Positions 13,215 through 20,655 of a stretch of 20,655 nucleotides of DNA are shown here, one piece after another. The stretch is from a virus. Its lineage: Duplodnaviria; Heunggongvirae; Uroviricota; Caudoviricetes. Every line of letters starts with the position of its first letter. Within the stretch, counting starts at the first letter, position 1. The notes below the pieces were generated by a model, which saw nothing but the letters and a program-made list of their open reading frames with translations, did not search any database and was not told the DNA's origin. The translations under genes and the position numbers were made by a program. The DNA lies in the IMG/VR virus record IMGVR_UViG_2740892214_000006; one strand, 5' to 3'.

Positions 13215-13640
13215 TCAATCTTTATTCTTTGAAATAGAGTCATTGATCTTTTCGAAACACCAATGAAATCCACAAAAGAGAGCTACACCAATATAACAAT
13301 ACAAAACTATCAACCACCTTTCAGTGTCCGAAGGGTAAAAAACATCAATTACATAAGCAACACCAATTGGTATTAATGCTAGTAATAACATCGACACAGG
13401 ACGTACAAACTTCTGAACTATATCAATTTTATAGAACCACAAGGCGGTATGTTTAATGATATAAGTAAAGATGGCTGCGCCAATAATGGCAAAAAACACC
13501 ATCGATAAAGTCGGGTATAACTTTGCGACAATTAAACCCAACAAAATAATTATAACTGCCTGCCCCCTCACACCAACCCTCCCTTTAGCTTTGTTTAGAA
13601 TGGCAATCATCATATATCCAAGACATGGCATTTGGTACAT
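13215..13640 (-). CDS. small integral membrane protein (4 predicted TM helices); candidate superinfection-exclusion protein
   Basis: 141-aa ORF convergent with the ejection-protein operon; four hydrophobic segments; markedly AT-rich (moron-like); occupies the position of sieA in P22-type genomes. Weak RBS, start uncertain. Confidence 0.6.
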   Translation of the reverse strand: MYQMPCLGYMMIAILNKAKGRVGVRGQAVIIILLGLIVAKLYPTLSMVFFAIIGAAIFTYIIKHTALWFYKIDIVQKFVRPVSMLLLALIPIGVAYVIDVFYPSDTERWLIVLYCYIGVALFCGFHWCFEKINDSISKNKD

Positions 13641-13764
13641 AGCTTGGGTCGGGATTTCAAATCCGCTCCCAGTTGATGGGGCCGTTACAGTACGCGCATA
13701 TCCGCTTTATGTGAAACAGGAAGATTTTTCTGATATCACTGCCACAGCAAAACACCAATTTCGA

Positions 13765-13780
13765 GACAAGTACGCGCGCG
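13765..13780. repeat. GACAAGTACGCGCGCG motif, copy 1
   Basis: Exact 16-mer shared with copies at 14050 and 15333; alternating CG palindromic core. Confidence 0.6.
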
Positions 13781-13788
13781 AGGGGTAT

Positions 13789-13812
13789 CAGTTGCAAAAA
13801 GTTTTGCAACTG
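13789..13812. promoter_or_regulatory. operator-like perfect palindrome CAGTTGCAAAA-AG-TTTTGCAACTG
   Basis: 11-bp inverted arms with a 2-nt spacer, in the 450-bp intergenic region upstream of the membrane-protein gene. Confidence 0.4.
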
Positions 13813-14049
13813 CGTCCGACCAGTACGCACACAATGGAGGGAAGTACCATAAAACTGTTCTCTACATAAGACAGAGTGGTGGTGATGTGTTGATTATCGG
13901 CGTATATGCGCACAGGACGCGCTATGACAATGTTTTATGCGGGTACACCAATCACATGTATCTGATGTGATAAATCGCGTTACATGACATCTCTGTTGTG
14001 CTGGTGGTTATCACGACTTTCTGAATCTGGCCTTTGCCTGATATTTTGC

Positions 14050-14065
14050 GACAAGTACGCGCGCG
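14050..14065. repeat. GACAAGTACGCGCGCG motif, copy 2
   Basis: Exact 16-mer; extended palindrome TACGCGCGCGTA; lies about 30 nt beyond the 3' end of the small - strand gene. Confidence 0.6.
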
Positions 14066-14093
14066 TAGCATCGACAGCATACACATTGGATAT

Positions 14094-14315
14094 TCATTTT
14101 GTGACCAATGCGATAAGTAGCGGGATAAGAATTGATAAAATCAACAGGCCGATGATCCACTTTTGATTTTCACTGGCCTTATCTCTATTTTCATCAATCT
14201 TATCAATAATTCGACGCTCCAAGCCGTGCATATCACCGCGAATGGCAATCATCTCATTGCGAACATCCGAGAAGTGGTTGGCTTGATGTTCAATGTGTGG
14301 CGTTCTGCCTTTCAT
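14094..14315 (-). CDS. small tail-anchored membrane protein (73 aa)
   Basis: Hydrophilic charged N-terminal 50 aa followed by one C-terminal TM helix (WIIGLLILSILIPLLIALV); AGGA upstream of ATG. Confidence 0.5.
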   Translation of the reverse strand: MKGRTPHIEHQANHFSDVRNEMIAIRGDMHGLERRIIDKIDENRDKASENQKWIIGLLILSILIPLLIALVTK

Positions 14316-14394
14316 TCCTGATCCTCACCTATCGTCACCACCTGCTGGTGTATAAAGGTATTGGCCCAAGCAGCTTTCCAATGGGCACTCATGT

Positions 14395-14850
14395 TTATAC
14401 GCTGACCTTACAATCAATCACCGCTTTTAACTTTTCAGCATTGCTTCCCTGACGCTTCCACGCGCTGTAAATATCTTTATCCCACGCTTTACCAGCTTTT
14501 GTTTGATAGCCTGCTTCATTGATCCGTTCAGCTATCACACGCCCATTATCAAATCCCTGTTGGATGGTATCGGCAATGATCTTTATAACTGCCGTTTCGT
14601 TATATGGTTTTGGTGGGATGTTCGGCTTTCCGGCAATAAGCGACGCAGCGGCTTTTTCCATGCGCTCCACCAGCCCAAGCATTCGTGAATCAATAGACTT
14701 TTCCGGCTGCCCCAGCTTCATGCGAATCGCATCAACAAGCCAGGAGGTTTTATCTCCTCCAGAAGCGAGAACAGACCGATTAAACTCATCCTGCAATTCA
14801 GATGGGATGCGGAACGCGATCAGATTAGATTTGCTCATTGCAAAGACCAT
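14395..14850 (-). CDS. RHH-domain (Arc/Mnt-like) repressor-like protein with C-terminal extension (151 aa)
   Basis: N-terminus has an RHH signature (beta-strand LIAFRIPSEL followed by helices); divergent from the PerC-like gene across an operator-like region. Start could be ATG 14850 or 14838. Confidence 0.65.
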   Translation of the reverse strand: MVFAMSKSNLIAFRIPSELQDEFNRSVLASGGDKTSWLVDAIRMKLGQPEKSIDSRMLGLVERMEKAAASLIAGKPNIPPKPYNETAVIKIIADTIQQGFDNGRVIAERINEAGYQTKAGKAWDKDIYSAWKRQGSNAEKLKAVIDCKVSV

Positions 14851-14867
14851 ATCAGTGAGTAATATCC

Positions 14868-14899
14868 ATACAGTATACCACTGTATAACACTGTTATAC
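14868..14899. promoter_or_regulatory. operator-like repeats in a divergent promoter region
   Basis: Inverted repeat ATACAGT (14868-14874) / ACTGTAT (14880-14886), followed by direct repeats ACTGTATAAC / ACTGTTATAC (14880-14899), between divergent genes. Confidence 0.4.
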
Positions 14900-15002
14900 G
14901 CTCAAATATCAGCCAGAAAATAACGGACCAATCACAAAGCTATCGCTGTGTTGTTGGTTCAGAGCTGGGCTGTGTTGGTTCAAAATAATCTGAGAGGCAG
15001 AA

Positions 15003-15284
15003 ATGATAAGGGACAGGAAAGCTGAAGAGCTGGAGTCAAAAGGGCTATACCGGAGAGCTGCCGCACGATGGATGGAAGTCATGCTGTTATGCACCGAGGA
15101 CGATGATCGGGAATGGATAAAGCGCCGCCGTGAAACGTGTCTGGAGAACGTGAAGCGCCCGCCCGTGAAGGTTGAGGACTTTGGCGACCTGCATAAAGCT
15201 GTTACCGAAACGCAACACCGCATGGGGATAGCGCAACCGAACGGTAACGCCTTCCGGTTAAATGGCGGCAAGAGGCAAAGGTAG
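15003..15284 (+). CDS. PerC-family-like transcriptional regulator (93 aa)
   Basis: SD GAGAGG 5 nt before ATG 15003. Motif EELESKGLYRRAAARWMEVM...DREWIKRRRETCL matches my recollection of the PerC/Pch family signature. Confidence 0.65.
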   Translation: MIRDRKAEELESKGLYRRAAARWMEVMLLCTEDDDREWIKRRRETCLENVKRPPVKVEDFGDLHKAVTETQHRMGIAQPNGNAFRLNGGKRQR

Positions 15285-15288
15285 ACCA

Positions 15289-15310
15289 CCAGAGGGAAAT
15301 CATCCTCTGG
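15289..15310 (+). terminator. possible weak terminator hairpin
   Basis: 7-bp stem CCAGAGG / CCTCTGG with 8-nt loop, 5 nt after the PerC-like stop; the downstream T-tract is poor. Confidence 0.3.
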
Positions 15311-15332
15311 CTGGCGGTTTCTGGTATTTCGG

Positions 15333-15350
15333 GACAAGTACGCGCGCGCG
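15333..15350. repeat. GACAAGTACGCGCGCG(CG) motif, copy 3
   Basis: Same motif with one extra CG, giving the palindrome TACGCGCGCGCGTA; about 50 nt after the PerC-like stop. Confidence 0.6.
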
Positions 15351-15581
15351 TAGCACCCAATCGGTGAGGAAATAGCGGCGACCTGAATGGTCAAAATCAC
15401 AACGCAGCTATCCCCGTAAGCAGCGCTTAACGGAATAGCAGTAACCTGAATCCAGTGGGGAGGGGGTAGTCAAATCTCTACAGCCCTGACTATCCGGGAC
15501 TGCCCGCCCCATCGTTTTTTTATACCCGCGAAAAATGAAATTTAATCCGGGCGTGTTTCATCCTTCCAGAGGGTATGACGT

Positions 15582-15767
15582 ATGACACCACGCGAAATAG
15601 CCTTATTGACCATCGCCAAACTTGAGCACGGAGGCCACCAGCTTACACAGGCAGATCAACGGGAGATAGAACGATCAGTTAATGCCGATATAGCCCGGCG
15701 CGACAGGTTCCGCGAAATGATGCGAGCACCTGCCTACCAGTGGAAGAAGCCAGCGCCGCGCAGGTAG
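15582..15767 (+). CDS. small hypothetical protein (61 aa)
   Basis: ATG 15582 with AGAGGG about 9 nt upstream; charged and Arg-rich; no family recognised; could be spurious. Confidence 0.35.
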   Translation: MTPREIALLTIAKLEHGGHQLTQADQREIERSVNADIARRDRFREMMRAPAYQWKKPAPRR

Positions 15768-15887
15768 ATATGGGATTATTCCACATGTAACTTATGCGTA
15801 TTAAGCAAATTTCCTTTATTCACCTTTACAGAATTGTGAGTACGTCAGTATCGTTATCCTTCCGATTCGCATTTATTCAGGATTTGC

Positions 15888-16430
15888 ATGTACCAGCTAA
15901 AGATAACCATCCGAGACAGCAAACCACCTATATGGCGGCGTGTGCTGGTTCCAGAGCAAATCCCCTTTAGTAAACTTCATGCCGTGATCCAGTTAGCTTT
16001 TGGCTGGAATGACGAACACCTGTATATGTTCGAGAAAGGGCGTAAAGGTGATCCAGGTAGCGAGTATCGCGTATGGGGTGAGGATGAAAGCATGGGTAAC
16101 GCGGCAATCACGCCACTATGGGCGGCGCTCCAGAATGAGGGTGACAAGCTGGTTTACACGTATGACTTTGGCGACTGGTGGGATTGCGTCATTGTGCTGG
16201 AGAAGCAAACACACGATACGAGTAATCAGCCCATTAGCTGCCTGCGTGGGAAAGGCACCACCCCGGCGGAAAACTCAGGCGGCTTGCATGGTTACAATGA
16301 ATTGCTATTACAGGCCAGAGAGTCTGATAATCCTGAGCAGGCCGAGATCCACAATTTCCTGATGCTGGATATTGAACGCCGGGTTTACGACCTGAGCCGC
16401 ATCAACGACAGATTGCAGGCTATTTACTGA
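15888..16430 (+). CDS. plasmid pRiA4b ORF-3-like (PRiA4_ORF3) domain protein (180 aa)
   Basis: N-terminal YQLKITIRDSKPPIWRRVLVP...LH.VIQ.AFGW..EHLYMF matches the PRiA4_ORF3 signature as recalled; AGGA 5 nt before ATG. Confidence 0.8.
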   Translation: MYQLKITIRDSKPPIWRRVLVPEQIPFSKLHAVIQLAFGWNDEHLYMFEKGRKGDPGSEYRVWGEDESMGNAAITPLWAALQNEGDKLVYTYDFGDWWDCVIVLEKQTHDTSNQPISCLRGKGTTPAENSGGLHGYNELLLQARESDNPEQAEIHNFLMLDIERRVYDLSRINDRLQAIY

Positions 16431-16782
16431 CCCGCATGTATTCACCTGATATTGCGTTGTCAGCGCCGCCAGTATCGCGCATAACAGCGCACTGACCGGG
16501 TAAACCGTAGCGCACGACCGTTGCGTTAGTATCACCGCCGCGCCGTATCTGGCGCGATTCATACACTGTCACCCGCTCAAGCAGTCCACCAGCAACCATG
16601 CTTTCCAGTGTGCGCCGGGTTGATTCGAGCTGGTGACGCTTATCGAACGACACCATGCCATGAAGCAGGTAGGCCACACCCGACACATCGAACGGCGGCG
16701 CACCAATCTCACCAGTCACCCATTCGAGGTTATCCGGTTCAAAGTAGCTAAGTATCTCTTTTTTGCGACTGGTCATTCTCAT
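16420..16782 (-). CDS. hypothetical protein (120 aa)
   Basis: Protein-like ORF convergent with the PRiA4_ORF3-like gene (3' ends overlap by 11 nt); AAGGA about 10 nt upstream of ATG 16782. Confidence 0.6.
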   Translation of the reverse strand: MRMTSRKKEILSYFEPDNLEWVTGEIGAPPFDVSGVAYLLHGMVSFDKRHQLESTRRTLESMVAGGLLERVTVYESRQIRRGGDTNATVVRYGLPGQCAVMRDTGGADNAISGEYMRVSK

Positions 16783-19639: not shown

Positions 19640-20140
19640 GTAAAAGGAAGCCCTCACCGTCCGGCGATTATTGAGTCAATTACATTTCCATAAATGCCCC
19701 CGTAGGGGCGGTTAGTTTCTCCACAAAACAGAGAAGAACACCTGCGGTGGCAGCCGCCCGGATGGATTGGGTTATGAGCCCGTCGTCCGGTGATGCTCTT
19801 CTCTGTTTTGTAAAAAGGACGGTACCAGCCGGAAGCAAGGGTACAAGCTGGTACCGCCAAGACTACACACAGCATAAAGTTGTGGTGCCGGGTGCCTCCC
19901 GGTGCCTGGCGAAGGTTGCACACCAGGCGGGTGGGTATCCACAGAAGGTCGACTGTCAGCCTCAACCTTAACCCGCGTGCGCTGAGCCGCATTCACCACA
20001 ACGCTAAGGATTCTCTCTGGTTGAAAATACTTAGCTGTTATGTGCCTGCTTTTAGCCACATCAGGCGAGGTGGACCTAGTTATTCCCCAACAACAAGGAT
20101 TCGGTTAATCTGGTTATCCCCAACAACGTAAAAGGAAAAG
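19640..20140. other. GC-rich structured non-coding region (candidate ncRNA or recombination/regulatory site)
   Basis: About 500 bp with only overlapping Arg/Pro-rich ORFs on both strands. 14-bp inverted repeat CAAAACAGAGAAGA / TCTTCTCTGTTTTG (19724-19737, 19797-19810) encloses 59 nt with nested hairpins; 9-bp stem GGTACCAGC / GCTGGTACC (19821-19855); more GC hairpins to about 19950. Confidence 0.3.
20080..20127. promoter_or_regulatory. tandem repeats TTAT(T)CCCCAACAAC upstream of a low-GC gene
   Basis: Copies at 20080-20094 and 20114-20127, 16-50 nt upstream of ATG 20143; candidate operator or promoter element. Confidence 0.35.
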
Positions 20141-20142
20141 AA

Positions 20143-20577
20143 ATGTCCGGTAATATCTATACGCTGTACAAATCCCACTGTGAAAATGTTGGAAAGTATC
20201 GGGGCATTGAAATCAGTGGGGTAGTGTCATCAGTCGAAATAAGCAAAGTTGAATCAAGGGCAACATTACTTACTCTTTTGGACCTTGTCTTACATGAGCA
20301 CCGGAAGAAATTCGGCACTCCCTATAATCAGTTGAATGGGAAAAAGGCTCTGGTTCACCTTATTCTGATGAAGCATCACTGGATGCCAAAACAGATTAAT
20401 GAGATGAAATTTGATGAACTTCTTCTTTCAATTCAGGATGAACTCACACTTGATAAAATAAGCGTAACCGCCCAGAAATTTTTAGATTATCGAGACTGGA
20501 GATCACAAATTCATCACTTTGATGATTTTGACGAAAATGAATGGGATCCTAATTTGTCTGCACAATATCTAAAGTAA
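20143..20577 (+). CDS. hypothetical protein (144 aa), low-GC moron
   Basis: AAGGA upstream of ATG 20143; coding sequence is AT-rich next to a GC-rich upstream region; no family recognised. Confidence 0.65.
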   Translation: MSGNIYTLYKSHCENVGKYRGIEISGVVSSVEISKVESRATLLTLLDLVLHEHRKKFGTPYNQLNGKKALVHLILMKHHWMPKQINEMKFDELLLSIQDELTLDKISVTAQKFLDYRDWRSQIHHFDDFDENEWDPNLSAQYLK

Positions 20578-20655
20578 CATCCTGGGCACTGTTGCAAAGT
20601 TAGCGATGAGGCAGCCTTTTGTCTTATTCAAAGGCCTTACATTTCAAAAACTCTG

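Follow-up and report, generated by a model that had tools for sequence, protein, structure and literature searches.

An ECs1072-family gene with conserved flanking repeats lies antisense in the early-left operon of a putatively lambdoid prophage

Lambdoid phages carry accessory genes ('morons') in their immunity regions, such as rexAB of lambda, sieB of P22 and bstA of BTP1. The gene analysed here is an open reading frame (ORF) of 144 amino acids belonging to the ECs1072 family, located near the end of a 20,655-nucleotide stretch of caudoviricete DNA (IMG/VR record IMGVR_UViG_2740892214_000006), which as a whole is referred to as the window. It resembles the three known cases in being a low-GC accessory gene near cI and pL, in occupying a slot with exchangeable cargo and, probably, in being transcribed independently of the lytic operons. 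There are also differences: the ECs1072 gene lies antisense inside the pL operon instead of being co-transcribed with cI, and it has neither sequence or fold similarity to any of them nor a match in PADLOC. Concerning the layout of the operon, the same arrangement is seen in the dicB operon of the Qin prophage (ydfA-ydfB-ydfC-dicF-dicB), with a ydfC-family gene, a small RNA (sRNA) with a DicF-like terminator, and early-left genes. Unlike in Qin, an oppositely oriented gene and a pair of repeats are wedged between ydfC and the sRNA, and the sRNA is of the STnc100/PasD type instead of DicF proper. Taken as a whole, the explanation that we favour, with slightly better than even confidence, is that the host prophage is a lambdoid one of the SfIV/SfV type from E. 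coli or Shigella and that the gene is a moron in its early-left operon, transcribed as a unit of its own. Within this explanation, the analysis demonstrates which family the gene belongs to, where it lies, the mosaicism of the slot, the conservation of the repeats and their inverted copy, and the truncation by IS26. The new elements are the anatomy of the slot, with antisense cargo between ydfC and an STnc100-like RNA; the conserved frame that the repeats make up with their inverted copy, a terminator and boxA; a recurrent convergent ydfC partner; and the truncation of the locus by the insertion sequence IS26.

The position of the gene was read from the intact relatives E. coli LR-06 (locus L005; loci are numbered with an L throughout), SfIV and Kati; window coordinates are L005 coordinates plus 15599. 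The order in these relatives is cI, pL/oL, a conserved leader, a hairpin with a perfect rrn-type boxA, a ydfC-family gene, the opposite-strand ECs1072 gene, the two repeats, an STnc100/PasD-like sRNA, yfdP/Q/R-type genes, xis and int. The oL operator of the relatives, CTAACTTAACTTAGTTA, matches both operators between cI and cro (oR) and is accompanied by a leftward promoter-like site. cI is found ~0.4 kb beyond the gene, and a rho-independent terminator on the plus strand follows the gene. This puts pL on the right-hand side of the gene, which therefore runs antisense within the early-left operon. The initial annotation had placed it at the edge of the integration module; int is ~2 kb away, and the gene is located instead inside the pL early-left operon beside the immunity region, with oL/pL and cI downstream of it in the relatives.

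In the window, IS26 begins 7 nt past the stop codon of the ORF. It stands in place of the inverted repeat copy of the cassette, the terminator, boxA, pL/oL and cI, and it cuts the ydfC-family gene. As the early-left genes (yfdR-like, xis and int) are separated in this way from pL and cI, normal immunity control of this arm of the prophage has probably been lost. It is also possible that the contig simply ends at the IS26 repeat.

The 144-aa ORF is a real gene, because an exhaustive hidden Markov model (HMM) search of a 1.84-billion-protein library gave 76 representative homologues, all of them single-domain proteins of ~145-155 amino acids, and the alignment columns of the family stay conserved down to ~25% identity. 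According to NCBIfam, membership of family NF033230 requires a full-length alignment at or above the curated cutoff of 70 bits; the protein matches this profile with 157.8 bits, residues 4-144 being aligned to positions 2-142 of 142. The PHROG 5286 profile is also matched over the full length (1-144 of 144; E = 1.5e-90). SfIV gp36 and proteins of the phages Kati, 569R4 and 689R6 have the same sequence (100% identity); identical proteins are also found in hundreds of E. coli genomes, and the protein is present on at least 1000 contigs. Many database entries have exactly this sequence, the family has been catalogued before, and nothing sets the window protein, itself uncharacterised, apart from NF033230/PHROG 5286, a family without a Pfam domain or a solved structure. 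The residues conserved across the family are L50, R54, L64, G66, A69, H72 and W134. Based on an AlphaFold model built with 44 sequences (predicted local distance difference test score, 92.9; predicted template modelling score, 0.86), which has eight helices, the product is predicted to be a conserved, soluble, all-alpha protein.

The gene had been described as markedly AT-richer than its GC-rich neighbour, and exact computation bears this out: the GC content is 37.9% in the ORF (38.2% at third codon positions), 54.9% in the adjoining 430 bp (19650-20079) and 47.5% in the whole window, so it is far from uniform. Just 1% of the 435-bp sliding windows are equally low in GC. Since the GC-rich neighbour is an STnc100-like RNA, the contrast is that of a low-GC cargo gene beside a structured RNA gene.

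The same annotation had proposed independent acquisition, which is supported by the low GC content, by mosaic breakpoints, by other genes in the same slot of SfII and PhiR29, and by the occurrence of homologues at further moron and non-phage sites. Megablast alignments break at ~20073 (SfII, SKA5), 20127 (PhiR29, PhiR49) and 20584 (SfIV, Kati). The slot contains a 64-aa ORF in SfII, a 171-aa PHROG 1244 protein in PhiR29 and no cargo in PhiR42_1. Distant ECs1072 homologues (31-56% identity) are found in the same antisense slot by cI at loci L206, L208, L209, L297, L298 and L299. Homologues also lie antisense before the holin gene in ST64B and L300, which is another moron hot-spot; others are next to an IS21 element or in a non-phage chromosomal neighbourhood (L210). 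Judging from these comparisons, the gene behaves as a moron, with both a deviating composition and presence, absence or replacement at one and the same site. Concerning a promoter and terminator of its own, a plus-strand terminator exists in the relatives and has been lost here to IS26, and for the promoter there is a weak conserved -10 candidate only. Of 5426 complete E. coli genomes, 408 (~7.5%) carry the GC-rich region, the repeats and the ORF as one contiguous block, and the gene is also found in Shigella serotype-converting phages. The features of the locus are presented in Table 1.

Table 1. Features of the ECs1072 locus, in window coordinates
Feature	Position	Strand	Remark
GCCCCCGTAGGGGC hairpin	19696-19710	-	
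Long hairpin with 25-nt arms (19723-19747, 19787-19811)	19723..19811	-	Downstream of the sRNA on the pL-direction transcript
STnc100/PasD-like structured RNA	19809..20032	-	The 'GC-rich region' of the initial annotation; in the DicF slot of a dicB-type operon
DicF-like terminator of the STnc100-like RNA	19817-19871	-	
Conserved left border element GCCTGCTTTTAGCCACATCAGGCGAGGTGG	20046..20075	.	Common to the repeat-less loci SfII, L209, L297 and L299
Repeat R1 TTATTCCCCAACAAC	20080..20094	+	Overlaps the expected -35 position (TTCCCC); Shine-Dalgarno-like AAGGA follows
Candidate -10 element between the repeats (GTTAAT/TAATCT)	20104..20111	+	Putative; missed by the consensus scan
Repeat R2 with left flank TAATCTGGTTATCCCCAACAAC	20106..20127	+	Left arm of the conserved inverted repeat bracketing the cassette in relatives
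Shine-Dalgarno-like AAGGAAAAG	20131..20139	+	Ahead of the ATG of the ORF
144-aa ORF, ECs1072-family phage-associated protein (NF033230; PHROG 5286), predicted all-alpha	20143..20577	+	Start codon ATG; HMM/profile matches, homologues, model
ydfC-family 3' remnant (QDVTLDIVQTN*)	20549..20584	-	Last 11 codons, rest cut by IS26; 29-nt overlap with the 3' end of the ORF
IS26 terminal inverted repeat and first bases (GGCACTGTTGCAAA...)	20585..20655	.	Matches at least 5000 plasmid records annotated IS26

Two near-identical repeats of 14-15 bp, R1 and R2, are found 16-63 nt before the start of the gene, as the initial annotation had reported. R2 is TTATCCCCAACAAC at 20114-20127 and ends 15 nt ahead of the ATG. 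The 10-nt cores CCCCAACAAC are identical in the two copies and are located at 20085 and 20118, 33 nt apart; the general form is TTAT(T)CCCCAACAAC. When up to two mismatches were allowed, the 14-mer matched at three places in the window, where 0.15 matches were expected, and not one of 100 shuffles gave as many. The description of the repeats as tandem was not borne out: the copies are not head-to-tail but are two direct copies with a 19-nt spacer. A tandem array or iterons of at least three head-to-tail copies were ruled out, as there are two spaced copies and, in the relatives, one inverted copy 0.55-0.7 kb off.

The repeats had also been taken as a feature of this gene, whereas the same pair precedes the unrelated PHROG 1244 gene and is better described as part of the frame of the slot. 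A scan for the double motif was made with one genome per species; most matches were unrelated chance or coding matches, and six enterobacterial loci were relevant. The double motif with the same 43-nt span was found in Enterobacter (two species), Scandinavium, Trabulsiella and E. coli. At the loci outside E. coli it stands ahead of a PHROG 1244 gene, which starts with GTG or ATG 16-18 nt past R2. In 80 further viral loci with a PHROG 1244 gene, down to 55% protein identity, the spacer varies but hardly any change is seen in either CCCCAACAAC core. Across genera the cores do not vary, although the spacer differs and the cargo proteins are down to 55-68% identity. The spacing of the cores is 33-34 bp across loci. 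In L298 the repeats precede an ECs1072 homologue of 34% identity. A profile scan of viral contigs gave 80 loci with a 100% identical ECs1072 protein and near-invariant flanks, and so added no diversity. In the complete 46-kb genome of Kati the motif is present only at three local sites, and it is therefore a local element.

The third site is an inverted copy of R2 and its flank (AATCTGGATATCCCCAACA), which directly follows the cargo in all seven loci examined in detail; it is followed in the same seven loci by (G/T)TTAAAGAGC, a hairpin and a T-run. Read in the direction of the pL transcript, this segment is a hairpin and then GCUCUUUAACAA, which abuts the copy of the inverted repeat. GCUCUUUAACAA is identical to the rrn boxA and the start of its spacer (ugcucuuua acaauuua; PMC2724277). 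The perfect rrn-type boxA GCTCTTTAACAA follows the hairpin on the pL transcript at L005:5215-5250 (LR-06) and at L302:818-829 (Kati). It is a site of the rrn/lambda boxA type, at which Nus factors act in antitermination; the relatives carry it on the pL transcript, whereas here it has been removed by IS26 and so falls outside the window. In the 46-kb genome of Kati, boxA is present in a single copy and there is none on the pR side; an N-like protein and boxB were not identified. BoxA precedes ~1 kb of untranslated RNA (antisense cargo and sRNA), which suggests that Nus factors protect this RNA against Rho. Together with the terminator, the two repeats and their inverted third copy make up a constant frame around the slot, in which the cargo is exchangeable, being an ECs1072-family gene plus ydfC at some loci and a PHROG 1244 gene at others.

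Not all loci contain the repeats. In SfII, L209, L297 and L299, the left border element is followed by a TATCTT hexamer similar to a -10 element. The alternative upstream module of ECs1072 homologues has the form GTGGTATCTTGG..GTTCTCACAC..CCAAGAAGG and contains the promoter-like arrangement TTcACC-16/17-TATCTT. We also observed this second module, as CAGTGGTATCTTGG..GTTCTCACAC..CCAAGAAGG, in L209, L297, L299, L214, L210 and L004 (SfII). It accompanies ECs1072 homologues even to the non-phage chromosomal locus L210, between PhoX and DUF1275 genes.

Concerning expression, we favour a weak cassette promoter combined with an unstructured C/A-rich leader, and we infer the promoter, the timing and the function of the leader from sequence features. 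The ECs1072 gene would be a separate, oppositely oriented transcription unit with both repeats in its 5' control region. R1 would cover the -35 position of the weak promoter, the -10 element would be located between the repeats, and transcription would start at ~20116-20119, at the beginning of R2. R2 would then open a short and unusually unstructured leader, rich in C and A, ending 15 nt ahead of the ATG. In the relatives, the transcript would end at the rho-independent terminator, shielding pL and cI. The gene would probably be expressed in the lysogen, and on induction it would be overrun by antisense transcription from pL.

In other genera, GATAAT, TTTAAT or TATAAT stands at the position of the -10 candidate GTTAAT (20104-20109). 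For the leader (20076-20175), the folding energy is -9 kcal/mol (z = +1.9), and 197 of 200 shuffles fold at least as well. R2 is C/A-rich and unstructured, and it ends 15-18 nt before the start codons of two unrelated genes. C/A-rich leader elements reportedly act as translational enhancers and as targets of the GcvB sRNA. R2 may be compared with them, as it is C/A-rich, unstructured and near a start codon; unlike in GcvB-type targets, R1 may fall outside the mRNA and no sRNA partner has been identified. In a microarray study of O157 Sakai, the ECs1072 transcript was detected without induction and dropped ~4-fold at entry into stationary phase (PMC2241611).

Several observations weigh against this model. 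The consensus scan gave no sigma-70 promoter on the plus strand; GTTAAT is without the critical A at -11, and the -35 candidate agrees at 3 of 6 positions. With a transcription start at R2, a function in the leader would leave unexplained why R1 is so exactly conserved. Also, the Sakai expression datum belongs to the namesake of the family and not to the exact sequence of the window. The separate regulation claimed initially is plausible in so far as the gene runs against the direction of the operon and has its own terminator in the relatives; a strong sigma-70 promoter, on the other hand, was not detected.

The conserved inverted copy raises the possibility, which is the main rival but which we regard as tentative and on balance unlikely, that the repeats act as RNA of the opposite strand. 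The complement of R2 on the pL transcript, GUUGUUGGGGAUAnCCAGAUU, would pair with the inverted copy after boxA, and the resulting long-range helix of 19-21 bp would loop out the 0.55-0.7-kb segment of the antisense moron; this could be an RNase III-type processing site or an insulating structure, comparable to the stem after nutL in the leader of lambda N, which is sensitive to RNase III. All seven detailed loci and 19 distinct arm pairs contain the inverted copy, and it abuts the perfect boxA GCUCUUUAACAA. The mean duplex energy is -27.4 kcal/mol on the minus strand versus -24.4 kcal/mol on the plus strand, the minus strand being the more stable in 14 of the 19 pairs; 90.3% of the cells are paired on the minus strand versus 87.5% on the plus strand. 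In two columns the sole variation consists of G-U wobbles which are valid on the minus strand alone (e.g. CG in 13 and UG in 6, with none unpaired), and pairing falls to 24-49% when the register is slid. The covariation, however, is not significant, with two double-sided changes and a score reached by 50 of 500 shuffles, and one central position is mismatched in most sequences. Conservation is much stronger in the core of R2 than in its partner arm, and R1 is without a partner, so pairing alone does not explain the conservation of the repeats; in addition, the partner arm is missing from the window.

A partner gene just past the end of the window had been suggested in the initial annotation. 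In the relatives there is indeed a convergent minus-strand ORF of 68 aa of the YdfC family (PHROG 1744), which shares 29 nt with the 3' end of the gene; in the window this gene is cut by IS26. The two genes could constitute a functional two-gene module, where one product would be made in the lysogen and the other, made from pL on induction, would silence or neutralise the first, either as a protein or by antisense transcription across the 3' overlap. A convergent ydfC-family ORF overlaps the 3' end of the ECs1072 homologue by 29-95 nt in all six immunity-region loci with cI nearby (LR-06/SfIV, L207, L208, L209, L297 and L299; the homologues are 31-72% identical to the window protein where not near-identical), and the small ydfC-family proteins have the invariant residues E5, P6, A10, E17, W21, M22 and K25. 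We nevertheless consider such a module doubtful. ECs1072 is found in only 6 of 25 phage records with ydfC-family genes, and the partner is absent at L206, at L298, at the chromosomal L210, at the IS-associated L212 and at the sites before the holin gene in ST64B and L300. Each gene thus also occurs alone, and as ydfC normally belongs to operons of the dicB type, the association may be positional. An obligate toxin-antitoxin pair, or a pair of defence and self-immunity genes, was rejected, since each gene occurs alone despite the six paired loci. At L208:2-169, we also observed a CsrA homologue right beside the ECs1072 homologue (38% identical), in an AT-rich prophage.

The repeats could also be operator sites on DNA, i.e. 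two direct copies three helical turns apart over -35 and +1, with the third, inverted site allowing looping. The spacing of 33-34 bp fits this arrangement, as do the cores, which are invariant in both copies while the spacer drifts, and many R2 and inverted-copy arms contain the palindrome GGATATCC. We judge this reading to be improbable. The palindrome is missing from the E. coli ECs1072-type copy GGTTATCC, and the absence of the motif from the rest of the Kati genome does not fit an operator of a dispersed regulon; moreover, the repeats are constant while the cI/Cro immunity types and the cargo genes change, and no candidate binding protein co-varies with them. Finally, it is hardly credible that a small non-autonomous mobile cassette (similar to a miniature inverted-repeat transposable element or mobile insertion cassette, MITE/MIC), with the inverted repeats as its termini, brought the gene into the prophage: imperfect inverted repeats of 19-21 bp do surround the 0.55-0.7-kb cargo, but all copies found share one slot, where the left border element and, on the right, boxA and the terminator do not change; a consistent duplication of the target site was not seen, and the right arm is contiguous with boxA, a functional element of the operon.

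Looking at the protein separately, its function could not be assigned from homology. Pfam gave no match either for the single sequence or for 44 family members, the NCBIfam search gave nothing past the family's own model, and sequence-profile searches of the PDB gave no relative. Foldseek searches against the PDB (with two models) and BFVD gave nothing under E = 1.7, with template modelling (TM) scores of at most 0.3. The defence-protein models of PADLOC-DB 2.0 gave 0 families at E <= 1. Homology to a conserved core phage protein, named beforehand as the finding that would contradict an accessory role, was not found in Pfam, PADLOC, PHROG or NCBIfam. In the literature there were no matches for the RefSeq accessions of the protein, and mention of ECs1072 is limited to one microarray. 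Weak leads to HEPN-type toxins (Foldseek hits 6m6u, 7ae9 and 1wwp) were rejected with E >= 1.7 and TM <= 0.25; also, the only R-x4-H of the protein (R120...H125), compared with the HEPN motif Rx4-6H, is not conserved in the family. A weak Bcl-2 lead was rejected based on its TM-score and missing motifs.

As the protein has neither a PADLOC match nor a structural analogue, the functional class that we propose is taken from genomic position only. By analogy with rexAB, sieB and bstA, a role in interaction with the host or with other phages, expressed in the lysogen (e.g. superinfection exclusion or defence), is reasonable. It is decidedly improbable that all parts of the fullest version hold together, namely that the ECs1072 protein is a new prophage exclusion, defence or host-modulating factor, made in the lysogen from the repeat leader and silenced by pL antisense transcription and the ydfC partner, with the helix beside boxA as a processing or insulating element. 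Should the gene turn out to encode an exclusion or defence factor made in the lysogen, a classical hot-spot would gain a small system consisting of one protein. The frame of two C/A-rich repeats, inverted copy, terminator and boxA suggests how lambdoid phages may insulate backward cargo in an essential operon, and it offers a simple sequence signature for detecting such cargo in other Enterobacteriaceae.

The structured RNA beside the gene matches the whole Rfam model RF02076 (STnc100; positions 1-206) on the minus strand with 43.4 bits (E = 7.4e-8), the gathering score of 47 not being reached; this match belongs to the neighbour of the gene and not to the gene itself. The region 19640-20079 (minus strand) is strongly structured and non-coding, with a minimum free energy of -187 kcal/mol and a folding z-score of -7.2. 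A 112-aa ORF at 19654-19992 (minus strand), annotated in SfII and marked as frameshifted in LR-06, is unlikely to be a real gene. Both STnc100 and the PasD sRNAs related to it are encoded by prophages and expressed in lysogens (Zhu, Shabalina & Storz, bioRxiv 10.64898/2026.05.13.724894). Pairing in trans between the STnc100-like RNA and the leader of the gene was rejected, as the duplex energy is -32.7 kcal/mol against a shuffle mean of -36.4 kcal/mol (z = +0.98). Inside the STnc100-like RNA gene, CCACAACGCTAAGGATTC at 19996-20013 is 78% identical to R1 plus spacer (CCCCAACAACAAGGATTC), and it may be an old duplication or a chance similarity. In PhiR42_1 the order is ydfA-ydfB-ydfC, a GC-rich STnc100-like RNA and dicB; the STnc100-like RNA (L215:2720-3270) stands exactly at the place of DicF in the Qin dicB operon, and two ORFs annotated there on the opposite strand are probably not genes.

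Elsewhere in the window, several small accessory ORFs lie at 13215-16782, between the tail/ejection genes and int. The other low-GC patch of the window (13215-13640) has a weak Bax1-I-like match, and a PRiA4_ORF3-like protein is encoded at 15888-16430; a guess that the ORFs at 14.4-16.8 kb are gtr genes was wrong and was rejected. At 1787-1975, isrK (63 bits) is found beside a C4 antisense RNA (80 bits), flanked by an AntA-like ORF (404-1237) and an Ash-family ORF (1406-2434); this is an immI-type antirepressor control region.

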